From positions 96,343-160,342 of IMG/VR virus record IMGVR_UViG_3300025132_000021: 64,000 bases of DNA, one strand, 5' to 3'. The first letter of the stretch is position 1. The number at the start of each line of letters is the position of its first letter. Shown here in pieces: positions 10,081 to 40,597 of the stretch. The DNA comes from a virus. The notes beneath the pieces are model-generated. The model worked only from the letters and a program-made list of their open reading frames with translations. It made no database searches and had not been told where the DNA came from. Both the position numbers and the translations under genes were made by a program.

Positions 10081-10287
10081 ATGTCGGAAGAGAGTCCAAT
10101 CCCTAAACGCATGACTGTCAAGAAGTTGGGTCAAAAAGTGGATGAACTACAAGAAGTCGTAGATATTATCCATAGTGATATTGGAGAACTCAAAGAACTT
10201 TTGAAGACTATGATTGAACTTCAAATTGTTAAAACTCCAGAAATTGCTGATTCCAATGCGGCTTGGGTAGACCGTATGTATTCATAG
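10081..10287 (+). CDS. small coiled-coil protein
   Basis: ATTAAGTA at 10051 (-30); heptad pattern. Confidence 0.6.
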   Translation: MSEESPIPKRMTVKKLGQKVDELQEVVDIIHSDIGELKELLKTMIELQIVKTPEIADSNAAWVDRMYS

Positions 10288-13200
10288 TTTCTCAAACAAA
10301 GTTTGTTGTTTGCCTAATTCTTTGCTTTCAAATGTTTCGGCTACCCATTTGCTCACTTGAGCATACAAGCCCGCAATATAATGATTACATCCATATTTGT
10401 CAATAAGGGTCTGCATCAGTCCATCATATTTACTAACACCACCTTCAGTCACAGTCAAAATCAAACGACCGGGACATAAAGTTTCTACTTCTTCGCCCGT
10501 GAATGGGTCAGTCTTGGTTTCCATAATAGTCCGACACTTACCACTCACAGGCACACGGCGATAACTTGCCCCACACTTAGGACATCTAACCTTTTGTTGC
10601 CCATAGGCTCTTAGATTACCTCGCATATCTCTGATAAGGTGTCTGTCTATCAATTTACTGGCTTGTTCTTTATTGTCCACAGAAGCCAACATCTCACCTA
10701 ATGCGAACTGTTCCATAGTTTTCCTTCGCATAGAATCTAAAGTATTGTAAGGATTGTTTCTTGGACCTGCTGCACAATCTTCAGTATCGTGCGTATAGCC
10801 GATTTTACCTACGGGCAATTCGCCAGCATCGGTTAAAGTTTCTACAATGGCTATGCCTTCAACTTTCAAAGCCGACTTCGGACTTGGTGGTTCATCTGCC
10901 TGAGTCAATTCATAAAACTCCACAGGATATTCCCAAACCACATCTACATTCAAGGCTTCTTTATCAATTTCAGTAGCCACAATTCTGGTTGTCAAAGTCA
11001 AAGGTGCGTCCATGCGTCCACCACGACTCTTAGGTAAAAACATACGGCTAAAGTTTATTAGTCCTTCTGCCAAGAGCAAGATACAATCAATATCTCCATC
11101 ACAATTTCGGCGTTTCGCTGCATGATAAAATGGATGTCCGTAATGACCTTTAACACCCGCTACACCAATGATACGAGCCAATACTGCCCCACTGGTATGC
11201 GGTGCAAGACCCATAATCAATTGTCCAATCAAACTTTCTTGAGGGTTATCTTCGTTGATTTCATAAAAAGGTTCAAGTTCATACATGGTTTCTAACATAT
11301 CATTAGTAAATCTCATAGCGGCGACCAAAGAGTTCACACAATTTTCAGCAACCACTACATCTTGAGGCATCAATTCAATAATCTGGTCATCTGCGACCAC
11401 AGGTTTTCCTTGACAATCTACCACATAACCTAAATCTACTGCTTGTGCTGCCGTTAGTCCGATTTCATCGGGTCTAAAATGAGTCATGGTAATATCTACC
11501 ATGTCAAAGCGAATAGTGCCATCACGGAAGGCACTCGTTCCATTTCGGTGTCTTAACACTCCTTTGAGCATAGCCTCTGGAGTTTTCTCAGCACTTCGTA
11601 GACCTTTGCTACCTTTTACTTCAGGTTCAGTGGCTTGATGAGTAGTTTCTAAACAATCTTTCCAAATCTCCTCTGTCCCCAGATGTTGTTTAATGACTCC
11701 TACAAAGTTTGTTTCCGTTGCCTCGTGCGGTGCTGTCGCATCGCCCGAACAAACACCCCGCCAAGTCTGTGTATCACAAGTTGGACACACACGGACACCT
11801 ACTGATACGCTTTCGTTCTTGCGAGCAGCATCACGAATACGGCGTTGAGAACCAGAGTTAAAACCCACAGGCCAAAGCCCATGCACAGGAGGATTCATCT
11901 CCCGATGTTTAGAACCTTCGGGCTTGCCCATTCTGGCTCCAATTCGCAAAGTTGTTCTGGGTCGGATTTCATAATCGGCCAAATCATTTAACCACTCTAT
12001 TGCGGATTCATAAATACTTAAGTTTATTTTCAAAGATTTCTCAACTTTGGCTAATAAATTAAGAACTAATAAACTTTCATCTCCAAACAGATTGCCCTCT
12101 GCGTCTATGTTAATCTGCGCTCGGTAGACCAATTCCCTAAACTTTTCAGGAACTTGAATCTTTTCTCCACACAGGCTAATCGTGATATTACTCATCAACT
12201 CATAACCTTCTTCGGCTGTCAAATCTTGCCAGCCTGTGGCGACATATTGAGGTGCAATTGGCACGCCATAAACTTTTGATTGTTCTACCGCTTCCAAGAA
12301 ATTAGCAGGTGCGCTAATCATTTCTTTCTTTAACACAGCATTGTGCCATTCTGAAACATAAGGACTCGGAGGAAGTGGATGGTTATTTTCTAAGAACTCA
12401 CCTAATGGAACTAAGAGTTCACCCAAGTCCCAAACTTTACGAATCGGCCACTCTGGTTCAGTTGGCAGAACCGTCCAATCGTCCTCTGGTTCTAATCCTG
12501 CTAAAACTTTCAACTCTGCATCGGAATTAAACCTCTGTGCCGAACCATCATTAAGTTCTACATAAGGTCCGTCAATACTTGTGCAAGGAGTTGCCACAGT
12601 TGCTTTACCCGGTCTCTCATATTTCATTTGAGTTCCACAGATAACGAAACCTGCCATAGCCATCATAGTAACTGGGTGCATAGCAGTTGTCGCCAATCCT
12701 GCTAATCGGCTTCGCCCATAGCGCAATCTTAACCCGCCGCTTTGCATGGGCAATCCAAACAAAGGTCGTCCTGCTAAGAAATCACTCATAAACTTATCAC
12801 TTGGTTTAATTTCCGTAGACCCTGTTTTTGTTTGCACAAAACTTTTTAGCCAATCCCAGCCATCAAGTTCTAACGCTTCCACATATTTTAGAATCTTTGG
12901 TGCTTTCAGAACCAGACCTTCACACATAACCAACAGCATACCTTCACGAACTTTGTTAGTTGGCACTCTGGGTAAATCACGCTGTCCTGTGACTTCACCA
13001 CCCACGCCTTCACCATCAACATAAACAGGACAATTTTGGGCAATTACTTCTAATTGAGGATTACTTGGTCTGTATTGTAGACCACGACTATATTTAGAAA
13101 CTTCTTCCTTGTATCTTTCCACTTCTGCAAAAGTAACTTTCGGAGTTCCCAAACCAAAATCACGGCGTAAGACATCTGCAATCAAAACACTAAGAGCCTG

Positions 13201-13848
13201 ACCTGTTCCACCTGCTGAACGAATTGGTCCAGCATAGTTCACGGCTAAACATTCCGTAGCGTCATCATTAGATAGAATCCGACAGGATACTACACCTTCC
13301 AGTGGGGCTACAAGGATTCCTTCAGTTAGCACCGCCAATCCTGCACAGATACCATGATACAAACAAGCAGAGATTCTCAAATGTTCACCACGAGCCTTCT
13401 GCGCTTCAGTTTCATAAGTTTCTAAAGTTTCTTTCCAATTGGCTTTTCCAATGTCATTATTGAATCCCATAACACTTCCAGTGCCTCCGCAATCATCACA
13501 CGGAACTTTCCAAGTGGGTGTTTTAGCAATTTCACCAGAACCATTACAAGGTTTGCACTTTTGTTTAACACCATACAATAAACTTTCAGCCGTTACAATA
13601 CGAGCAATATCAATTGCTACCAATTCACGGTTTCCATCGTGAATCTCTGTTAATTCACGGATTTGCTCTGCGGTGCGACGAAGATGTAAGAAATCCAGAA
13701 GTTTTTGAGTTCGGTCTGCCAAGTCGCTGGCTCTTGGGATTTCTACTGTTAAACGAGGGTCTAAACCTTTCGCACGAGCCTTATCTGCTAATTGATAAAC
13801 AACATCACACTCTTCTTCTAATCTCTGAATGTATGCTTCATAATCCAT
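10282..13848 (-). CDS. polC: DNA polymerase D large (catalytic) subunit DP2
   Basis: ARAKGLDP..VEIP, YAGPIRSAGGT, RLRYGRSRLAG, RIGARMGKPE, FRDGTIRFD, catalytic HAAKRRNCDGDxD, RGGRMDAPL, GNLRAYGQQKVRCPKC..YRRVP. Confidence 0.95.
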   Translation of the reverse strand: MDYEAYIQRLEEECDVVYQLADKARAKGLDPRLTVEIPRASDLADRTQKLLDFLHLRRTAEQIRELTEIHDGNRELVAIDIARIVTAESLLYGVKQKCKPCNGSGEIAKTPTWKVPCDDCGGTGSVMGFNNDIGKANWKETLETYETEAQKARGEHLRISACLYHGICAGLAVLTEGILVAPLEGVVSCRILSNDDATECLAVNYAGPIRSAGGTGQALSVLIADVLRRDFGLGTPKVTFAEVERYKEEVSKYSRGLQYRPSNPQLEVIAQNCPVYVDGEGVGGEVTGQRDLPRVPTNKVREGMLLVMCEGLVLKAPKILKYVEALELDGWDWLKSFVQTKTGSTEIKPSDKFMSDFLAGRPLFGLPMQSGGLRLRYGRSRLAGLATTAMHPVTMMAMAGFVICGTQMKYERPGKATVATPCTSIDGPYVELNDGSAQRFNSDAELKVLAGLEPEDDWTVLPTEPEWPIRKVWDLGELLVPLGEFLENNHPLPPSPYVSEWHNAVLKKEMISAPANFLEAVEQSKVYGVPIAPQYVATGWQDLTAEEGYELMSNITISLCGEKIQVPEKFRELVYRAQINIDAEGNLFGDESLLVLNLLAKVEKSLKINLSIYESAIEWLNDLADYEIRPRTTLRIGARMGKPEGSKHREMNPPVHGLWPVGFNSGSQRRIRDAARKNESVSVGVRVCPTCDTQTWRGVCSGDATAPHEATETNFVGVIKQHLGTEEIWKDCLETTHQATEPEVKGSKGLRSAEKTPEAMLKGVLRHRNGTSAFRDGTIRFDMVDITMTHFRPDEIGLTAAQAVDLGYVVDCQGKPVVADDQIIELMPQDVVVAENCVNSLVAAMRFTNDMLETMYELEPFYEINEDNPQESLIGQLIMGLAPHTSGAVLARIIGVAGVKGHYGHPFYHAAKRRNCDGDIDCILLLAEGLINFSRMFLPKSRGGRMDAPLTLTTRIVATEIDKEALNVDVVWEYPVEFYELTQADEPPSPKSALKVEGIAIVETLTDAGELPVGKIGYTHDTEDCAAGPRNNPYNTLDSMRRKTMEQFALGEMLASVDNKEQASKLIDRHLIRDMRGNLRAYGQQKVRCPKCGASYRRVPVSGKCRTIMETKTDPFTGEEVETLCPGRLILTVTEGGVSKYDGLMQTLIDKYGCNHYIAGLYAQVSKWVAETFESKELGKQQTLFEKL

Positions 13849-13888
13849 GGCTACGCCTCTCTATGATAACATAGGGGCTATCACTGGC

Positions 13889-16597
13889 TTAAACTTGTCC
13901 GTCCATGAAAGAATATGGGCTACGGTCGTTAATAGAAACAACTTTTAGTTCACCATTCCAAACTAAAGTAGAACCATTTTCTAACTTGCGAGAAGGAATT
14001 GGTGCTAACGCCAAATCAGGGAAAGACCCTGAATCTTTAGGGAAACCTTTCTCTACATTAAAACTTTCAATTTGCATCTCTGAACCATCTGGGAAAATCA
14101 GATAAATAAAATCTTCAGAATAAGTGTTGCCTAAATCTACGGCCACTACCATATCTTCGGATTTCCAATCCTCCATTCCTACATCATCAGCAGCCATTTC
14201 TATCCAGTTTAACAAATACTCGGCTAATTGAAAACTAATGTTTTCTAATCCATCGTTATTCTTTTCTTCAAAAGAAAGAATTGGTTGTCTAAGCATAGTA
14301 ATATCGCCATCATTATATCCTAAATAACTAAAACTAAATTGACGAGGTGAGCGAGCATTAGCATCTCTAATAAAACCAAAGTTTTTACTACGATAGATAC
14401 GGGCTAAGTTTCGGTGAAATACTAAGTTTTCATCTGACATCCAGAGCCAAAACAAATCAGCATCACTACTTACTGAACTTTCAGCCCCTTTTGCTAATGC
14501 CTTGTAGCAAGCACACTTTGGTTCAATTGCCGAGCAACTCATTGGCTCAGGTGCTTTCATGCAAACACAAGGATTGGATTTAGTAGCACCACAGCAACAC
14601 GAAGTTTTGCTAAGTTTTTCTTCAGCATCACGACGGCGTTTGAGCGACGGTGTTCCGTCCAGAGGAGTCCAGTTCACAGGTTCTCCAAACTCCATTGGTC
14701 TTTGAATAGGTGCAGAACCTTCTTCAGATGCAAAAGGATTTAATTTTTTAGCAGCAGTTTGAGCCTTATCTTTAATTTTTTGAGTTGCTGGCATCTGTTC
14801 TACGGTAGACCTTACTCCACCATATTTGCGGTTGCACCACTCTTCTTGTCTTTCTCTTTCCTCTACCAATGCCGACTCATCTTTAGTATTCGCAAAGACA
14901 GATGCTTTAATTGCATTCCCGAACTCTTGATAAAATGCTGCTTTTTCATTATGTGTCAGACCTGAGATTTCGGGGGCAACATCTTCTACCAACATATTAA
15001 CAATCATTGAGCAATTTATGTTCTTTTGAGGAGTTGAATACAGGGTGTAGTTATCATCACCAGCCCGACAATAAATACCCATAGCCCTCGCAATAGGCCA
15101 TGCCAATCTTTTAATTGCGCCTGATGGAATCTCAAACCGTTGCTTAACATAATCTTTACCTTCTTTCTTATCCACCATTGTTGCTTGTTTAGTAAAACTA
15201 CTAACCATTTCTGCAACACCCATCACTGAAGGTTCACTTGTTGCACTGGCGGTTGGAATCTTTGACATAGGTTCTCCACGAGCCAAGGCCGCTACCACAT
15301 CTAATGGAGATTGCACCACACCAGTTCCACTGACAGTAGGACCAGTAGTGCCTGTTTCTAATTGGGCTAACTCTTCCATCATAATTGATGACAAATCTCT
15401 GTAAAACTTCTGACTTTTATTTCCATAAGGCGGTGCAGCCACGACATAACCATCTTTGGCTAATCTTTTTAATCCACCAATTAAAGCGGCTCGTAATGGT
15501 TCAGTTCTTGATTTTGCCCCATCAACTTCTCCCTTAACATAATCTGCTTGAAAACTTTGTTCAGCACGCATTTCTGGAGGCTTATAGGTGCGACCCAACA
15601 AATCATAGATTTCTTCTTCAGTTGCCCCGCCGAGATACTCGTTGGTATCACGGTCAAACAATCCGTATTCATTAAGTTTCAAACCTTTGCGCTTGGCTGC
15701 CGAGCGCATACCAATGTTATATCCAGAAGGTCCTGTAAAATAAAGTAAGGCTGCGCCGATACCAGTAGGTGTGCTAACTTTAATATCTACTTTAACACCA
15801 TCAATAACTAATTGAGTTTTCTTTTCACCCAACCAATTATATTTCTCATAGTTTCCTTCTAAGTCGGCTACTATTTCTGGCAAAGTAATACCTTCTTTAA
15901 GAATAACTACTACATCAAGGTCGCCCGGGTCTTCCCGACCACGACGATAACTTCCACAAACTTCTACAAAGTCTGCATAAGGTTCTAACATATCTGAAAC
16001 TTTATTGGCTAAGAGTTCTGCTTCTGCACGAGTCATACGCTCTGATTCATCTCGGTCTTCTGCCCCAAACTTTTCAACTAATTGTTTCATAATTTCTTCT
16101 TCACTAATCAATCCTAATCTAACCATAGATTCCAACTGCAACAAAGTTTCTTGCATCTGGGCTTCTTCAATCATCTTTTGATACATCACAGCACGCTCGG
16201 CGTAACCTTTTGGAACTTTACCTCTGACCACGGCATTAAAAGTTTCAATTTCGTCCACATCAACTTCTTCCATAACATACAAAATACGATAAGCAGGTTC
16301 GTCGTCTAAACTTTCTTCTTGGAGAATGTAGGAAACTTGGTCTTCCGCTTCGCCACGAACACCAATGAAAACTTTGTAAGGTAAATCTGCTTTAGTAGAC
16401 ACGGCTTCTAAACTCACGAACTCATCAGCAGGCAAAAGTTCTTGAACACGATATTCCGCATCAAAGTCCATTAGATATTTAGAATTACGAAACATTTGTT
16501 GAGCAAATTGATAAGGCACTAAAACATACCTTTGATTATCTCTGGGGTCAGAAACAATAGTTCCCATAGGAGATACAGAAACAAAATTAAGTTGCAT
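13889..16597 (-). CDS. mosaic polyprotein containing a family X DNA polymerase core (approx. 15566..16036) and a Cys-rich module
   Basis: PolX motifs GSYRRG..GDLDVV, KVDIK, LLYFTG, GLKLNEYGLF, TEEEIY..LG..PPEMR; flanking modules unassigned. Confidence 0.85.
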   Translation of the reverse strand: MQLNFVSVSPMGTIVSDPRDNQRYVLVPYQFAQQMFRNSKYLMDFDAEYRVQELLPADEFVSLEAVSTKADLPYKVFIGVRGEAEDQVSYILQEESLDDEPAYRILYVMEEVDVDEIETFNAVVRGKVPKGYAERAVMYQKMIEEAQMQETLLQLESMVRLGLISEEEIMKQLVEKFGAEDRDESERMTRAEAELLANKVSDMLEPYADFVEVCGSYRRGREDPGDLDVVVILKEGITLPEIVADLEGNYEKYNWLGEKKTQLVIDGVKVDIKVSTPTGIGAALLYFTGPSGYNIGMRSAAKRKGLKLNEYGLFDRDTNEYLGGATEEEIYDLLGRTYKPPEMRAEQSFQADYVKGEVDGAKSRTEPLRAALIGGLKRLAKDGYVVAAPPYGNKSQKFYRDLSSIMMEELAQLETGTTGPTVSGTGVVQSPLDVVAALARGEPMSKIPTASATSEPSVMGVAEMVSSFTKQATMVDKKEGKDYVKQRFEIPSGAIKRLAWPIARAMGIYCRAGDDNYTLYSTPQKNINCSMIVNMLVEDVAPEISGLTHNEKAAFYQEFGNAIKASVFANTKDESALVEERERQEEWCNRKYGGVRSTVEQMPATQKIKDKAQTAAKKLNPFASEEGSAPIQRPMEFGEPVNWTPLDGTPSLKRRRDAEEKLSKTSCCCGATKSNPCVCMKAPEPMSCSAIEPKCACYKALAKGAESSVSSDADLFWLWMSDENLVFHRNLARIYRSKNFGFIRDANARSPRQFSFSYLGYNDGDITMLRQPILSFEEKNNDGLENISFQLAEYLLNWIEMAADDVGMEDWKSEDMVVAVDLGNTYSEDFIYLIFPDGSEMQIESFNVEKGFPKDSGSFPDLALAPIPSRKLENGSTLVWNGELKVVSINDRSPYSFMDGQV

Positions 16598-16623
16598 ATA
16601 ACTAAGTTATACTCAACCGATAC

Positions 16624-18009
16624 TTAAAGATATGGATAAGGAGTAGCACTCCAAACCTCTATGGTTTCCGCACCATATTCTCCAGACATCAATTCATAAC
16701 CAACAAACTTCCAGATTTCAGCCCATGAGCCTCCGCAGGAATTACACCTTACTTCTTGTAAGCCGTTTTCTAAAGAACCCTCGTAGCCAATATCGTCTGC
16801 ACCACACCAAGGACAGTGCATCAATTCTGCCATTTCCATGAAAGTTTCAGCATTCATAGCCTTGTCTATCTCCCAATCTCCATCATTATTCTCTTCATCA
16901 AGATAATTACGGGATACTCCAAGTTCATACACAGGTTCTTTATCCATGACACAAAGTTCATTTTCTTGCCAGAAAAAACTGATGTTATAGGCAATTGTAG
17001 AAGCCCAATCTACGGCTTCCCACGGAATCCAAGCAGTTAATACGATACGGTCAAAATCTTTTCCTTCTTCGCCTTTCATGTGGTCTATACCCTCATGTCC
17101 GAACAATGCCCCTGCGTAAAACTTACTCTGCCACAACCAAGAAGTAATCTTATCTCCATAAACTCCATATTGGTCTTGCTTTCTATTTTCCCAATTGCCT
17201 AATGAATCTACATTAACTGGTGTGCCTACGGGAACATAAAGAACTCTCCATGCTTGCATCATTATTCCATGGTCGTCATCAGAATACATCCAAGTTCCCT
17301 TTTCAAATCTTTCAAGCCAAATATCAAACATCCTCTCAAAGTATTCATCTTTAGTGGTATCTTCGCCAAGTTCCGAACCATCAGGCAAGTCAAACCCTTC
17401 CTCATAAGCCCCCAATCCTCCTCCAGCCATATTATGTTCTGCCCAATGTTTAATATCTTCTTGAGCAGGTGAATACCAAATCCGTTTTATTTCATTTATG
17501 ATATAATCTGTGCAAGCAAAGTTTTCTTCACTTGATTCTGCATCCAATCTACGGGTCTCATTGTTTTTGGGAAATAAACTGCTGCCCCAAAACTTTTTGC
17601 CAGTGCGCTTGGCCTTACGAACTACCATTGGAGTTCCTGTGCTATCACGAGGCACACGGTTTAGATAACCAGACTTGACTAAGTTCTCTAACTCATAAAC
17701 ACGGTTTAACAAATTGCGTCGCCAGTTTTCTACTCGGTGAACTCTGGTCGTTCCAGCAACTTTCACTCCATCTACCCAGTATTGCACTCGGATAGCATCA
17801 CGACCTTTCGCCCGACTGGTCTGCCCAGTCACGCTGGAATAAACTCGGATTTCGCCCTCACCCAAAGGACGGGTGAACACTCTTTCTTTGACAACTCGGA
17901 TTGCCCCACTGGGATATTTACTGGACCGTTCTTCTATGGAAAGTTCCCTAAAACTCAAGGCTTCCATAAAATCTTGCATTTGAGCCACGCTAATATCAAC
18001 ATAACTCAT
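16624..18009 (-). CDS. mosaic multi-domain protein (topoisomerase Zn-ribbon-like module, possible ART-like module, C-terminal Zn ribbon)
   Basis: TTTAAGTA at 18039 (-30); PMVVRK..GKKFWGSSLFP; CPWCG...CNSCG. Confidence 0.55.
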   Translation of the reverse strand: MSYVDISVAQMQDFMEALSFRELSIEERSSKYPSGAIRVVKERVFTRPLGEGEIRVYSSVTGQTSRAKGRDAIRVQYWVDGVKVAGTTRVHRVENWRRNLLNRVYELENLVKSGYLNRVPRDSTGTPMVVRKAKRTGKKFWGSSLFPKNNETRRLDAESSEENFACTDYIINEIKRIWYSPAQEDIKHWAEHNMAGGGLGAYEEGFDLPDGSELGEDTTKDEYFERMFDIWLERFEKGTWMYSDDDHGIMMQAWRVLYVPVGTPVNVDSLGNWENRKQDQYGVYGDKITSWLWQSKFYAGALFGHEGIDHMKGEEGKDFDRIVLTAWIPWEAVDWASTIAYNISFFWQENELCVMDKEPVYELGVSRNYLDEENNDGDWEIDKAMNAETFMEMAELMHCPWCGADDIGYEGSLENGLQEVRCNSCGGSWAEIWKFVGYELMSGEYGAETIEVWSATPYPYL

Positions 18010-18071
18010 AGATTATCTCAAGTCGTGCGACTACTTAAAGATTAAGTATCAAGGACTCGCAGCCCTCATCC

Positions 18072-18331
18072 CATCGGCTTCGCCTCAAGTGTCTACGACA
18101 CAGGGGGCAACCTATCCCTCTGTTGCTACGCAACATTCACCCCATCCGGGGAGAGGAGATTCCTCTTAGGGTATAGTCCACTTACTCGTTGAGGTCGGCC
18201 ATGCGGTCGCTCAAAAGCAATAGTGCTGATGCCCAAAGTCCGACAAAGATACCAAGGTTCTCGTCGTGAGCAAAGTAAATAGCAATACTACCCAAGATTG
18301 ATACAAGGCTTGCACCTAATCCCAACTTTTT
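18072..18331 (+). ncRNA. candidate structured non-coding RNA
   Basis: ATTAAGTA box at 18041 with no start codon at +30; CATCGGC(18072) pairs with GCTGATG(18225); GCCTCAA pairs with TTGAGGT; at least 5 internal hairpins; ends at a T-run; homologous to 39356..39455 (-). Confidence 0.55.
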
Positions 18332-18336
18332 CCAGT

Positions 18337-18759
18337 TCATGCCAATGCCTCCTGAAGTCGTGCCAACAAGTCTGCCTTCTTACCAGTGATAGGAAGGTTA
18401 AGTTCTTTGAGTCGGTCTTTAAGTTGAGCGACAGTCAGAGCCTTGAGTTCTTCAATTTCTTCAGTAGCCGACTCAACAGCAGAGTCCACCGCAGCATCTA
18501 CTACATCTTCAATGCTTTCTCCTGCTTCCAATGCTTCTTCTACATCGTCTACCACATCTTCTGCAACATCTTCTGCGGCAGAAGCAATAGTTTCAACGAC
18601 ACTATCAAGTTCTACATCAATGCCTGTGGCATCTTCAATAGCGTCTTCAATTTTGTCAGCAATTTGTTCAATCGTCTTTCCTCGGTTTTTGAGCCACCAG
18701 CCAGCGACAGCCGCCGTAGCGATGCCCAGACCAGTTAGCAATACGGTGTTTGGTTCCAT
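18337..18759 (-). CDS. membrane-anchored acidic protein with C-terminal SAP-like domain
   Basis: N-terminal TM; LTVAQLKDRLKELNLPITGKKADLLARL is a SAP signature; TTTAAGTA at 18789 (-30). Confidence 0.8.
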   Translation of the reverse strand: MEPNTVLLTGLGIATAAVAGWWLKNRGKTIEQIADKIEDAIEDATGIDVELDSVVETIASAAEDVAEDVVDDVEEALEAGESIEDVVDAAVDSAVESATEEIEELKALTVAQLKDRLKELNLPITGKKADLLARLQEALA

Positions 18760-18784
18760 GATTCTAATAAGTCGTATGACCTAC

Positions 18785-19735
18785 TTAAAGTTGTTCATCA
18801 TTGAGATTGTGTTTAACCTCTATGACTTCTGGCTTAGTGGGATACTGCATGGCCGTATCTTCATTAAGGAACATCACTTGAAATTGTCCCTTTGAGGTTT
18901 CTTCGGTTAATTCACTCTTGGATAAATAAATAGGTGGTCGGAACATTAAGTTATCATCAACACCTGTGGATACATCACTCATCATCTTGGCTTCGTATCT
19001 TTGCAGGATTTGTTCTAAGCGAGTTAAGTCCATATCTCCAGATGCCGAAATACGACCTGTGCTGGCAGCGTGAGCCGAAACTTTTGAATTGCCTAAGAAC
19101 TTGTTGGCTAAATCAGCATCAGAAATAATTAAACTTTCCAACTTTTGTCTAAGTATTGTCATTACTTGCGGTTTCCAAAACTCTGCTACTTCAAAAGGAC
19201 TCAAGGTGCTGTTCCAGTTTTCAAAGTCCACTTGCCACCAAATATCCATGTATTCAGCATCGGCTTCAGCAGGTGTAGCCTTTGGTCCCATTTGTTCTCC
19301 ACGACCAATAGTAGTTCCACCCAATCCCAGAATGCCTCCATAATATACTAATGAATAGTTTTCAGTTTTGACAAAGTTTGTTTGCCACTTACCACCAGTT
19401 CTGGAGATAACATATTCTTCAACTCCACTACCCGGAAAAGTTTCATAAGTTTGTCTGCTCATGGTTTTCACAGTGGTTTCTAATTCTTTTGCAGCCGCAG
19501 TTGCCGACTTTCCTTCATTCATTAGGTCAATCATTTCAAATCTTTTCTGTTCAGGTGTGCGAACAATTTCAAATCTGCGGTTCTTGATAATCCATTTAAT
19601 TCCTTTGGCAGCCAAATAACCTTTCAAAGTTTTCGGAGTAGTGCGTGCCAGTTTAGTGGCTCTGGTCATACTAATGCCACGACTCAATAACAAATCCAGA
19701 GCAATTAAGGCTCTTTGTTGGGTCAATGGATTCAT
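18785..19735 (-). CDS. hypothetical protein with N-terminal tandem HTH-like repeats
   Basis: GISMTRATKLARTTPKTL and GKSATAAAKELETTVKTM; GTTAAGTA at 19765 gives start 19735. Confidence 0.55.
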   Translation of the reverse strand: MNPLTQQRALIALDLLLSRGISMTRATKLARTTPKTLKGYLAAKGIKWIIKNRRFEIVRTPEQKRFEMIDLMNEGKSATAAAKELETTVKTMSRQTYETFPGSGVEEYVISRTGGKWQTNFVKTENYSLVYYGGILGLGGTTIGRGEQMGPKATPAEADAEYMDIWWQVDFENWNSTLSPFEVAEFWKPQVMTILRQKLESLIISDADLANKFLGNSKVSAHAASTGRISASGDMDLTRLEQILQRYEAKMMSDVSTGVDDNLMFRPPIYLSKSELTEETSKGQFQVMFLNEDTAMQYPTKPEVIEVKHNLNDEQL

Positions 19736-19760
19736 ATTATCACTATCTCCTATCAACTAC

Positions 19761-21485
19761 TTAACTGTTGTCATCGTCCCACATATCAGGTGGAAGCACT
19801 TGAATGAATGTGGCTTTCTGTATGTTTTTCTCTGTGCATTCCAACCAACCTTGGTTAATCATGTATTCCCATTCTTTGTCGCTAAATGGAACTCTGTCCC
19901 GCATTTCTTTGACATCTGCAAACGCTCTTTCTAAAGTTTGTGCATAGTCATTTAAGCGTTGGTGAACTTCAGCAATTCTTTTAGATGCCCCTGACTTAAT
20001 ATACTTCCAATCTCCATCTTGAATCAATGTATTCAAAGATTCAGTAAAGATGCGCTCGGCTTTTTCAATACTCATGCGAGAAACTACTCTTTCACCATTT
20101 AGTCGGGCAAACCCTTTGCACAGGTTCACAAACTCTTGAAACTTTCGGAAATCACGACTGGTTCTTTTGTCTAAGAAAGCAGCAGAGAACTCTGGCATCG
20201 CCTTAATACGATTCATGGCTTCACGAATGTCCATACGATGTGGAGTAATATCGGGTTCTTGTTCACTTACATACCTTAGATACTGACGGAAGAAACTTCT
20301 CCACATACTCAAGTTGTTGTTAAACTCTTTCTTGAGATACTTACCATTCATAGCATCAAGGATTTTATCTTCAATAGCATACTCGGTATCACCATCAGTC
20401 AAGGTCATACGAGCGAAAATCAATGTCAAACGACTAAGAATCTGTGGTGTGTATTCTCCAAAAGCACCTAACATACCCATTTTAGCAGGTCTACCATCTT
20501 TGGTTTCTGTTTTGGGGTCCCAATCACGAGGAGGATTACCTAAGAACATAAAATTAACTTTACCTTCTCTTTTGGTGTCCACTTGTCCTTTTTGCATTGT
20601 GAAACTACCATTAGCCATCACATTCATTAGTTCACCGAATACCTCTTGATTCCATGTTTGAAACTCGGACACAGCGATGCGTTCATTATTCATCTTTGGT
20701 ATCAATCCCAACTCAATTGAGTTGAGGTCTTCGCCACTCATGGCTCCGAATAACCCCGGAATTGTGCAAAGTTTTCCACTGGAGGCTACGCCACACGGCA
20801 CTAAAGGTTCAATCATCTGTTCAATCAAATGGTCTTTACCCTCGCCCATACTGCTGATAATACCCATGTGTAGCATATCAGTTTTCTTTTGAGGACTTAG
20901 GCAATACAACATAACTCCATATTTGATAGGAGGGTCTGCATAAAGTTTAGACCATAAAGTATCATCACGAACCATCAATTCTAATGGGCTGAAAGCAGGA
21001 CCGTGTTCATCACACAAAGCCATAAACTCCGTGAACTGTTCATCAGTCATCTGGCTACTTTGCATTTCAACATTCTTTTGAATGTCAGTGACTACAAAGA
21101 CCTTATCACGACCCATCATTTGATAAGCACCGCTTACCATGAGTTGTGAACCATCACGAATACTTTCAGTTAGCATCATCATTGTTTGACGCAGCCGTTC
21201 TGAATCCATACCACCGGGTCTGGAATCTAAACTACCATTATGTGCCATGCACTCTACGGCGTAAGTTCCATCACTGATGAAGAAACGAATAGCCGACTGG
21301 TCAGGATTAGGACTTTTAGAATTAAGAGGAACTTCTTCCATCTTCAGACAAATGCCTGAACCTATTTCTAAATGCTTCTGTGAAATCTTAGCGGCATAGA
21401 TGCGCTCAATGTTGGCATCGGTGCTATGATAGGTGGATGTTGCAGACTCTACGAACTCATGTATTTCGCTCGGAATGTCTAACAT
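19761..21485 (-). CDS. divergent MCM-like AAA+ helicase
   Basis: Walker A-like ISSMGEGKD, GKLCTIPGLFG (MCM GKxxSxxGL), AVSEF at Walker B, FLGNP, ILSRL arginine finger, RKFQEFVNLCKGFARL sensor 2. Confidence 0.7.
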   Translation of the reverse strand: MLDIPSEIHEFVESATSTYHSTDANIERIYAAKISQKHLEIGSGICLKMEEVPLNSKSPNPDQSAIRFFISDGTYAVECMAHNGSLDSRPGGMDSERLRQTMMMLTESIRDGSQLMVSGAYQMMGRDKVFVVTDIQKNVEMQSSQMTDEQFTEFMALCDEHGPAFSPLELMVRDDTLWSKLYADPPIKYGVMLYCLSPQKKTDMLHMGIISSMGEGKDHLIEQMIEPLVPCGVASSGKLCTIPGLFGAMSGEDLNSIELGLIPKMNNERIAVSEFQTWNQEVFGELMNVMANGSFTMQKGQVDTKREGKVNFMFLGNPPRDWDPKTETKDGRPAKMGMLGAFGEYTPQILSRLTLIFARMTLTDGDTEYAIEDKILDAMNGKYLKKEFNNNLSMWRSFFRQYLRYVSEQEPDITPHRMDIREAMNRIKAMPEFSAAFLDKRTSRDFRKFQEFVNLCKGFARLNGERVVSRMSIEKAERIFTESLNTLIQDGDWKYIKSGASKRIAEVHQRLNDYAQTLERAFADVKEMRDRVPFSDKEWEYMINQGWLECTEKNIQKATFIQVLPPDMWDDDNS

Positions 21486-37891: not shown

Positions 37892-38446
37892 TTACTTAAA
37901 CCTTCGTAAGATTTCGGGCAAATCTTCAATCGGGTGCATATCTTCATCGTTTTCTAACCAAACATTGGCGCAGATAGTTTGCACATCTACACCTTTGGCT
38001 TTAACTTCGTGAGCATAGTTCCAACCCATAAGTTTTACTTTGGGTTTCTTAGAATCTCCGTCGGCAGTAGTCCAAACCACGATAGCATCATCACGAACAT
38101 AACTTTTCAATTGATTAGGAGGAATCATTCGCTTGAACTTGTCCCATTGATGAGGTCGCAAACCTTTGATTTCAAGAGCCTGTCCATAAACATTCAAATC
38201 TCCTTTCAAAGTTTTGTTAGTAAAATCAATGTAGTGTTCTACAATATCTTCTTTCGGAATAAATCTTTTCAGATAAACCGCAGTTGCCTTTTCTGATTTG
38301 ACTCCAACCAGATTACTACTTATTTTATTATGATTGTAAGCACCAGAACCTTTTGAACCTTCGCCACCATAATGATTGACGATATTTTCAGCGTGTTGCT
38401 GACACCACTTTAATTCTTTCGGGAATAGTTTGACTGTGGCTACCAT
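37892..38446 (-). CDS. small PD-(D/E)XK nuclease-fold protein
   Basis: GVKSE...GDL...LEIKG pattern. Confidence 0.5.
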   Translation of the reverse strand: MVATVKLFPKELKWCQQHAENIVNHYGGEGSKGSGAYNHNKISSNLVGVKSEKATAVYLKRFIPKEDIVEHYIDFTNKTLKGDLNVYGQALEIKGLRPHQWDKFKRMIPPNQLKSYVRDDAIVVWTTADGDSKKPKVKLMGWNYAHEVKAKGVDVQTICANVWLENDEDMHPIEDLPEILRRFK

Positions 38447-38974: not shown

Positions 38975-39339
38975 ACATAATAGTATGGTGCATCTAACTA
39001 CTTAACCATTCGCTTCGCTCTTTCGCTGTTGCGTTTCATGTTGGCAGTAGTGTTAATACCATATCGCCAAATATCAATCAATGCTAAAGTTAGCAACACT
39101 CCAAAACTCGCTAAGACAATTTCCCAGACCATAGATTAACTATGACCGACGACTGTTATGAACTTTACATAGCGTCCATCAATTTCTTGAGGTGTTTCCT
39201 CAAAACTTCAATTGGTTCTTTGAGATATTCCTTTCTATCCCACGCTTGCACAACATTTAGTGCAGCCAGCAGCACTTCCTCATTATGATAGTTCCCATCC
39301 ATCACTTAGTCCTAAATCATACTGTGATATAAACTTTCA

Positions 39340-39472
39340 GGTTGAACTTGACCAGATAAGGGTATTTCCCTCCCCGGATAAGGGAGGCGCATAGCGACGG
39401 GAAAAGGCTGTTCCTGTAACGGAAGCGAAGCGACGACCCTACCGAGGGCTACGAAAGTTTTCTCGGTAGATG
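39340..39472 (-). ncRNA. structured element 3' of the HNH gene, homologous to 18057..18168
   Basis: CTACCGAG/CTCGGTAG stem, then a hairpin series sharing TCG.AGCCCTC, GCTTCGC, ACAGG, GCTAYGC and ATCCGGGGAG with the 18.1-kb element. Confidence 0.5.
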
Positions 39473-39473
39473 A

Positions 39474-40349
39474 CTACTGGATTCCCGGTTTGTCTAATGG
39501 TGGTGCTTCTAAATAATTCAACAAACTTTTAGCCCAAACTTCAGGACAATCATGCTTCTTAATCAAACCTTCCATCGTATTACAATGGCTACATAGCACA
39601 CCACGAATCTTACCTGTCTCATGGTCATGGTCAATACAAGCAATCTTAGGATTACTTGCCCCGCCGTTTCTGTGTTCTATATCAGTTCCACAGATTTGAC
39701 AATTATGAACAGTCATAATATGGTTCTTTAACACATGAGCCGTAGTAGAATACTTGCCTTTCTTCATCACACAGGCTCCACATACCATTACGCTTTCATC
39801 TAAGTCAAAAGTCATAGCAATACCTTTTTGCCCAGAGATTCCACAGCACCAACAAGTTTCACCTTTGTATTGTTCGTGGCTAACGCAAGTGCTACAAAGT
39901 TGATAAGTGCTATTCGTGATACGACGAAACTCTCCACAACTTTGGCATTCTGCCTCGGTTCTGGTTCTGATTCTATCTGCTTTTGGCACAGTGATTAAAT
40001 CTGTATCCTTAAAAGTTGGCGGTCGCTCAACCCATGCTTCACGGTATTCCAAAAATCTTTCCCATGCCCAACCTTTACATTTTCTGGACCAAACTTTATG
40101 GCAGCCATTACAAAGCATTTTATTTTCTTTGATATGAAAGGCTTCGTCTGCTTGACAAACTTTTCCGCAACTATCACAAGTTTCTTGATTATATCTCCAT
40201 TTATTAGCACAGCCCGCACACAATTGATATTTACCTTGCCAAATAGCAGCCAGTTCATTACAACCACCACGACAAATGCCTAAGCCTTTGTTTTTGATTC
40301 GTTGTTCAGGAGAAACTTCTGGTAACGGACAGTTTCGCCATGCTACCAT
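39474..40349 (-). CDS. Endonuclease VII-type HNH nuclease with multiple N-terminal CxxC zinc fingers
   Basis: CQICG..IDHDHETGKIRGVLCSHCN; repeated YQLCxxC..ETCxxCG units; TTTAAGTA at 40379 gives start 40349. Confidence 0.85.
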   Translation of the reverse strand: MVAWRNCPLPEVSPEQRIKNKGLGICRGGCNELAAIWQGKYQLCAGCANKWRYNQETCDSCGKVCQADEAFHIKENKMLCNGCHKVWSRKCKGWAWERFLEYREAWVERPPTFKDTDLITVPKADRIRTRTEAECQSCGEFRRITNSTYQLCSTCVSHEQYKGETCWCCGISGQKGIAMTFDLDESVMVCGACVMKKGKYSTTAHVLKNHIMTVHNCQICGTDIEHRNGGASNPKIACIDHDHETGKIRGVLCSHCNTMEGLIKKHDCPEVWAKSLLNYLEAPPLDKPGIQ

Positions 40350-40366
40350 ACTACTTCTAAAGTGTA

Positions 40367-40597
40367 TCACTTACTTAAACTATCTTCAGGCGCACAGCCT
40401 TCGCAACAATAAAGATAACCACCTTGCATAATATCAAAGTCCTCATGGCAGACCCGACAAACTCGGTGTCGCCATCTAAGAGCATAACAAACAACCAAAC
40501 GGGCTTCTTCAAGGCTTACTGCGGCCTCGTTTTGAATTAAACCACTCTCTACGGTCAAGCCTTTTACTTGACACCATGATTCCAGCATAGTAGGCAT
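40367..40597 (-). CDS. small Cys-rich protein
   Basis: CRVC...YCCEGC. Confidence 0.5.
   Translation of the reverse strand: MPTMLESWCQVKGLTVESGLIQNEAAVSLEEARLVVCYALRWRHRVCRVCHEDFDIMQGGYLYCCEGCAPEDSLSK

Follow-up and report, generated by a model that had tools for sequence, protein, structure and literature searches.

A putative family of structured small RNAs in marine archaeal viruses, one copy of which follows an Endonuclease VII-type nuclease gene

Introduction

The IscB/TnpB nucleases and their omega-RNA (HEARO, RF02033) share with the locus studied here an HNH-superfamily nuclease gene beside a structured non-coding element and the occurrence of stand-alone copies of that element. The original prediction for this locus was therefore either a nuclease-RNA system with cis and trans RNAs or a mobile unit with a structured end. 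However, the nuclease has no RuvC domain, the element has neither a HEARO match nor a guide-like flank, the two do not strictly co-occur, and the nuclease gene belongs to the syntenic viral core rather than to a transposon. Enzymes of the T4 endonuclease VII type recognise DNA shape without RNA. The C-terminal 75 aa of the nuclease resemble T4 endonuclease VII (1e7d) and Hpy99I (3fc3), the metal-finger motif being invariant; unlike these enzymes, it carries about 210 additional N-terminal residues, which are predicted to form two repeated modules of paired zinc ribbons.

The element itself can be compared with two other groups. ERIC/REP-type bacterial repeats are structured intergenic sequences of ~130 nt, which occur in either orientation and are present or absent at orthologous sites. 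The viral element is similar in length, intergenic position, variable orientation, presence/absence and conservation across genomes; however, it has no overall palindrome, is limited to 2-4 copies and resides in genomes of archaeal viruses, and its paralogues are deeply diverged, the stems being compensated and the loops invariant. On the other hand, small RNAs derived from 3'-UTRs and free-standing small RNAs exist in prokaryotes and phages, and phi29 pRNA is a structured RNA encoded by a virus. The element shares size, a multi-hairpin build and conserved loop motifs with these RNAs, and like the 3'-UTR-derived and free-standing ones it lies directly after a stop codon or has a putative promoter of its own. 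It differs in having no sequence or Rfam relation to them and in being known from sequence alone. To our knowledge, hardly any structured RNA family has been described from archaeal viruses, and we know of no comparable one; a literature search returned neither a comparable RNA family in archaeal viruses nor a description of the RNAs of this virus group.

The virus and its nuclease gene

The window, a stretch of 64,000 nucleotides, corresponds to bases 96343-160342 of the IMG/VR virus record IMGVR_UViG_3300025132_000021 (160 kb), on which inverted terminal repeats are present. It encodes the PolD large subunit DP2, PolX, an MCM-like ATPase, an XPD-like helicase and an Hjc-like nuclease; relatives, which originate from marine metagenomes (TARA among them), additionally encode TFIIB and the PolD small subunit. 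Gene starts are preceded by a TTTAAGTA-type box ~27 nt 5' of the ATG. Based on the PolD/MCM-like/TFIIB-type gene content and these boxes, the source is judged to be an archaeal virus or virus-like element. The nuclease gene and its presumed promoter are as follows:

39474..40349, minus strand: nuclease gene, 291 aa plus stop, with zinc-ribbon modules and an Endonuclease VII-type His-Me finger
40370-40379, minus strand: TATA-like box TTTAAGTAAG, read from the sequence, ~27 nt 5' of the nuclease ATG

The open reading frame spans 39474..40370(-), and the ATG at 40349 is its most likely start, giving 291 aa, because the 91%-identical homologue P0001 starts likewise. Boxes of the TTTAAGTAAG type are also located ahead of neighbouring genes, and the one here is a putative leaderless-type promoter of the nuclease.

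The nuclease matched Pfam Endonuclease_7 (PF02945) over aa 217-288 (46.7 bits against a cut-off of 23.6, E 3e-12) as well as endonuclease VII families in PHROGs, and a PDB profile search retrieved T4 endonuclease VII 1e7d (E 3e-8) and Hpy99I 3fc3 and nothing else. The His-Me finger domain occupies aa ~215-291. It had been claimed that about ten CxxC pairs are arranged in repeated units, and both parts of this description hold: nine CxxC and one CxxxC were counted, and in the AlphaFold model, which has a pLDDT of 91.7 and shows an E-E-H module twice, the N-terminal ~210 residues form a tandem duplication, each module combining helices with two zinc ribbons. Across 40 homologues neither the Cys pairs nor the IDHDH...RGVLC..CN motif varied, D240, H241, H243, N257 and the flanking Cys pairs being invariant. 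The duplicated module measures ~85 aa within aa 20-211, and its matches to the LIM-domain fold were weak. Foldseek with the model gave only weak LIM and Hpy99I matches and none to Cas9, IscB or TnpB, and no RuvC domain was found by Pfam, the PDB profile search or Foldseek. Judged by these features, the nuclease is unusually built though of the ordinary Endonuclease VII type. It is probably an ordinary structure-specific DNA endonuclease of that type for which RNA is not needed, a judgement made jointly with the explanation of the element given below.

Altogether 98 full-length homologues were found, while a search of viral contigs for related loci gave just two full-length relatives. From 91% down to ~45% identity the order TFIIB, a gene, the Hjc-like nuclease, three small genes and the nuclease is kept; on the basis of this order, the nuclease is counted among the syntenic core genes of PolD-encoding marine archaeal viruses. 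A free-standing homing endonuclease gene was considered and rejected, since the distribution was not sporadic and insertion-like. The idea of a mobile unit with a structured end was given up on the same synteny and on the lack of terminal inverted repeats in the element.

Two copies of the element in the window

Copy A starts 4 nt after the nuclease stop codon:

39340..39469, minus strand: element copy A
39439-39469, minus strand: H0, 5' hairpin of copy A
39416-39437, minus strand: H1 of copy A, degenerate
39400-39414, minus strand: H2, hairpin of copy A
39386-39398, minus strand: H3, hairpin of copy A
39371-39385, minus strand: CCUUAUCCGG motif/H4 of copy A
39360-39370, minus strand: H5, hairpin of copy A
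39340-39353, minus strand: 3' block, end of copy A
39326..39337, minus strand: TATA-like box AAAGTTTATATC of a 46-aa ORF (~39165-39302), abutting the 3' end of copy A

The AAAGTTTATATC box is conserved together with the small gene in the relatives L033, L037 and L120. Copy B lies inside a block of replication genes and is antisense to both flanking genes:

10282-21485, minus strand: replication block (DP2, PolX-core protein, 461-aa protein, copy B, SAP-type protein, MCM-like ATPase)
18053..18181, plus strand: element copy B
18053-18067, plus strand: 5' motif, start of copy B
18089-18101, plus strand: H1, hairpin of copy B
18102-18121, plus strand: H2, hairpin of copy B
18122-18134, plus strand: H3, hairpin of copy B
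18140-18151, plus strand: H4 of copy B
18152-18166, plus strand: H5, hairpin of copy B
18169-18181, plus strand: 3' block, end of copy B
18030..18049, no strand assigned: promoter region beside copy B, with the box of the divergent 461-aa gene (minus strand) and a TATA-like ATTAAGTAT (plus strand)
18182-18340, minus strand: 52-aa two-helix membrane ORF adjoining copy B, with nucleotide conservation in the relative G001

In the replication block DP2 has 1188 aa, the PolX core lies inside a 902-aa protein, the 461-aa protein has a zinc ribbon at its end, and the MCM-like ATPase was assigned by a weak Pfam match (E 5.6e-4). The changes of the 52-aa ORF against G001 are codon-like, as in a real minus-strand gene.

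The co-linear homology of the ~130 nt after the nuclease with 18057..18168(+), which had been noticed in the sequence, was confirmed. Read as its reverse complement, 39340-39473 can be aligned co-linearly with 18045-18185(+) in the blocks that had been listed, and the A/B pair was the best non-self match under four scoring schemes (~3200 genome windows, both strands). Moreover, an nhmmer profile made from the nuclease-side copies of six viruses, copy B being excluded, retrieved B as the sole other match in the 160-kb genome (E 7e-4), so that the free-standing homologue is real. In covariance-model searches copy A scored 118.6 and 113.1 bits and copy B 70.3 and 74.8 bits. A chance similarity of two G+C-rich intergenic stretches would agree with the modest pairwise score under strict scoring, which was reached by 6 of 2000 dinucleotide shuffles, and with the failure of a BLAST-type self search with either copy to link A and B. 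However, such a coincidence is extremely improbable, given the top genome-wide match under all four schemes, the profile and covariance-model detections made independently of the copy found, and the compensatory changes across 16 homologous copies.

Copy B folded with z -3.5, and copy A folded no better than shuffles. At copy A, 39331-39338, in the stretch overlapping the TATA box of the next gene, is perfectly complementary over 8 nt to 39453-39460 in the H0 loop; this long-range complement is also present in L033 and absent from the wider family.

Copies in related viruses

In total 16 distinct copies of the element were collected, with 2-4 per genome (two in the 160-kb record and four in the 166-kb relative G001). 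Orthologues of copy A are present in L033, L200, L199, L036, L037, L120 and L121. The element follows the nuclease stop immediately in the 91%, 70% and 57% relatives (L033-L035, L200, L199), and a diverged subtype without H3 stands right after the stop in L039, L124, L125, L129 and L128. In L036 (68% relative) a tRNA-Ile(UAU) with an intron separates nuclease and element, and in L121 and L122 the element is 1.3 kb 3' of the nuclease. At ~17 other full-length nuclease loci the downstream DNA examined held no element, the next promoter or gene being immediate.

As for the intervening sequences, the tRNA of L036 (5911-6003, 93 nt, anticodon UAU) scored 60 bits with the Rfam tRNA model, and therefore the spot between nuclease stop and element hosts another RNA gene too. 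A 241-aa gene on the opposite strand is inserted at L037:5906-6631 and at the same position in L120, and the element of these two sits between two diverging TATA boxes.

In G001, whose nuclease is 39% identical and located at 27 kb, three further copies at 50.5, 83.9 and 123.6 kb were found by covariance model R1, built without any G001 sequence (E 1e-11, 1e-9 and 2e-3). None of them is near the nuclease, and the proposed covariance-model search for orphan copies was thus productive. The 50.5-kb copy (L207) and copy B are positional orthologues, since they have the same flanks; the other two of these three lie between unrelated small genes. The weak model matches at 95.7 and 39.6 kb of G001 were discarded as coding sequence and that at L033:1293-1388 as A+T-rich noise.

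A motif-pair scan of viral contigs returned only a near-identical contig and chance matches, and a refined pattern only the two known virus lineages. With the refined strict pattern 24 matches were obtained in cellular genomes, all of them chance by model score, so no host copy was found. Rfam 15, with gathering and permissive (E<=10) thresholds, gave nothing relevant for the window, both copies, the relatives or the G001 copies.

These distributions bear on the reading in which the Endonuclease VII-type nuclease would use the copy after its gene as a cis-encoded RNA cofactor or guide, and the remaining copies would supply it with RNAs in trans. A copy adjoins the nuclease stop in two deep clades, window/L033/L200/L199 and L039/L124/L125/L129/L128, whose proteins are 39-40% identical; in the latter clade the stop codon lies inside the first hairpin, and the nuclease-side copies are distinct subtypes in which H1 is degenerate or H3 lost. 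However, the ~17 loci without the element, the tRNA, opposite-strand gene or 1.3 kb intervening in L036, L037, L120 and L121, and the position of three of the four G001 copies and of copy B far from any nuclease are difficult to reconcile with it. Gene order around the nuclease is also conserved in general. Moreover, the variable parts of the element are paired stems and its ends are conserved blocks, leaving no single-stranded guide; Rfam gave no HEARO/omega-RNA match, and the nuclease has no RuvC domain or resemblance to IscB, Cas9 or TnpB. The nuclease-RNA system of the original prediction is not upheld. Examination of the homologous loci gave the expected conserved 3' structure at part of them and no variable single-stranded guide flank, and about half of the nuclease homologues lack a downstream element while others carry it. 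We regard a cofactor or guide role as improbable, and it keeps its small probability because the copy has stayed at the stop in two deep clades. Still a little less probable is that the nuclease-side paralogue would be a dedicated RNA partner of the His-Me finger nuclease, the other paralogues serving other proteins; if true, archaeal viruses would possess a nuclease that associates with RNA without belonging to the IscB/Cas9/TnpB lineage.

A selfish or semi-selfish intergenic repeat (MITE- or ERIC-like), which spreads to new sites with little function of its own and would travel in transcripts in either orientation, was also considered. G001 copy L206 (123.6 kb), flanked by the gene of a small zinc-finger protein and by a 124-aa gene, has no counterpart at the orthologous site of G000 (C1 ~38000-38200, L241:1320-1500), which is what such a repeat would produce. 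The same could be said of the copy number varying from 2 to 4, of both orientations relative to neighbours, and of the fact that copies within a genome are more alike (0.74, 0.62) than positional orthologues (0.50, 0.48). On the other hand, there are neither terminal inverted repeats nor target duplications; the paralogues are only 50-74% identical, so there was no recent burst; A, next to the nuclease, and B, within one and the same pair of neighbours, are each position-stable across viruses with nucleases ~40% identical; and the invariant unpaired motifs and compensated stems indicate selection on a folded molecule. A selfish repeat is thus unlikely in our estimation. The within-genome likeness points towards concerted evolution or towards co-evolution with a partner specific to each genome. 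At the L206 site, the small zinc-finger gene of G001 runs into the first hairpin of the element, and in G000 the stop codon of this gene directly adjoins the following TATA box.

Structure and constraint

The element is ~120-140 nt long and consists of a row of short hairpins. H0, the 5' hairpin, carries a UC-N-Y-AG-N-C motif in its loop and is followed by H1, a short hairpin degenerate in the clade of copy A. H2 has a 5-bp stem and the 7-nt loop CAACCUU (CAGCCUU in some copies); in H3, which one subtype lacks, the stem measures 4-9 bp and the loop 3-4 nt. 3' of H3 follows the nearly invariant CCUAUCCGG motif with a purine run, then H5, sometimes H6, and a GCGUCCA-like 3' block.

In a 12-copy alignment, 91.8% of the pairing cells were complementary (shuffles gave 85.2% and controls with slid partners 53-72%), and there were 14 cells with double-sided changes against 4.1 expected; none of 500 shuffles reached this count or the covariation score. 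Since the alignment was fitted to the model and comprises only ~6 deep lineages, these figures lend support without being final. Among the paralogues the stem of H3 occurs in four unrelated sequences, and four of its five pairs show compensatory changes; H2 covaries at three of five pairs once the H3-less subtype is included, and H5 and H0 covary as well. Loop lengths and sequences vary while the stems are retained. The earlier statement that stems are kept despite sequence change thus stands for H3 and H5 and falls for H4, which had no compensatory support in the 12 copies, and the conserved H4 letters therefore probably act unpaired. H1 could not be scored in this way, its columns being out of register on the model alignment.

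The element is more conserved than the adjacent nuclease gene, with DNA identities of 97% vs 73% (L037/L120), 99% vs 81% (L036/L200) and 83% vs 62% (L199/L037), and on this comparison it is non-coding DNA under purifying selection. A small ORF was rejected, because conserved motifs spaced by 16, 30, 31, 36 or 39 nt do not stay in one reading frame. The genome is not enriched in complements of the conserved loops, no oligo-T terminator was found 3' of the element, and a search by eye for a closing stem or pseudoknot among the 5' region, conserved loops and 3' block gave lineage-specific pairings only (GGACU/AGUCC in copy B and the 8-nt pair in copy A).

A weak strand signal came from the modelled helices, where G-U exceeded A-C cells 21 to 8 (~7 to 2 by individual hairpins). 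Folding energies favour neither strand, and this neutrality would be compatible with a DNA-level signal, i.e., a single-stranded priming or replication signal or a protein-binding site, acting as folded or duplex DNA and not as RNA. The location of copy B inside the replication block (among DP2, PolX, the 461-aa gene and the MCM-like gene) and the promoter abutted by every copy would also be compatible with it, and so would the mirror pattern of the G001 copies at ~43(+), 82(+), 116(+) and 138(-) kb in G000 orientation, which local transcription does not explain. However, the stems keep complementarity and not sequence, unlike duplex protein-binding sites; one of the strands tolerates G-U pairs, which in DNA would be G-T; the elements are G+C-rich with no unwinding region; and in a compact genome promoter adjacency is expected for any intergenic element. 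A DNA signal is therefore given about the same low probability as a selfish repeat.

Discussion

Based on the results above, the element is best explained, with moderate confidence, as an undescribed family of virus-encoded structured small non-coding RNA, and the adjacency of copy A to the nuclease gene as conserved gene order rather than functional pairing. Complementarity without conservation of the stem sequences, invariant loops and mostly one-sided G-U pairs indicate a folded single strand, most simply RNA. The working form is most likely RNA of the nuclease-sense strand at copy A and of the plus strand at copy B. Such an RNA would fold as a row of hairpins (H0, H1, H2, H3, H5 and sometimes H6), whose stems could change freely if pairing is kept and would hold three nearly invariant, mostly unpaired motifs, namely the H2 loop CAACCUU, CCUAUCCGG with the purine run, and the GCGUCCA-like 3' block.

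Copies adjacent to a stop codon may be the 3' trailer of the upstream mRNA, because H0 begins just 4-10 nt after the stop codon and in one clade even contains that codon. The copies beside a divergent promoter (B, L037, L120 and L207) could be separate transcription units. The exposed pyrimidine-rich unpaired motifs might bind a viral or host protein or purine-rich RNA, and the element is probably a binding platform; if so, the RNA could serve either as a trans-acting regulator or decoy or as a cis-acting signal for processing or stability. However, some points speak against RNA. There is no promoter room ahead of the stop-adjacent copies, the shared TATA box at the divergent-promoter copies would put the start inside H0, and a signal in single-stranded DNA should show covarying hairpins as well.

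The constraint on the element is stronger than that on the neighbouring proteins, and since a genome holds several diverged copies with compensatory changes, the element very probably does something specific during infection, the context of which would be uncultured marine archaea. With ~130 nt it is a defined and synthesisable target for structure probing and for the fishing of partners, and its covariance model can mark this virus group in metagenomes. At the same time, the tempting reading as a new RNA-guided nuclease is removed as unsupported.

Two minor observations concern the history of the element. In copy B, 18058-18075 and 18129-18146 form an 18-nt direct repeat, 78% identical, which relates the 5' motif region to the H3/H4 region and may be the trace of an ancient duplication inside the element. 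In the 38% relative L127, positions 1079-1110 directly 3' of the nuclease stop resemble the H0-loop motif alone (..AACTCGCAGAC..) and may be the remnant of a lost copy.
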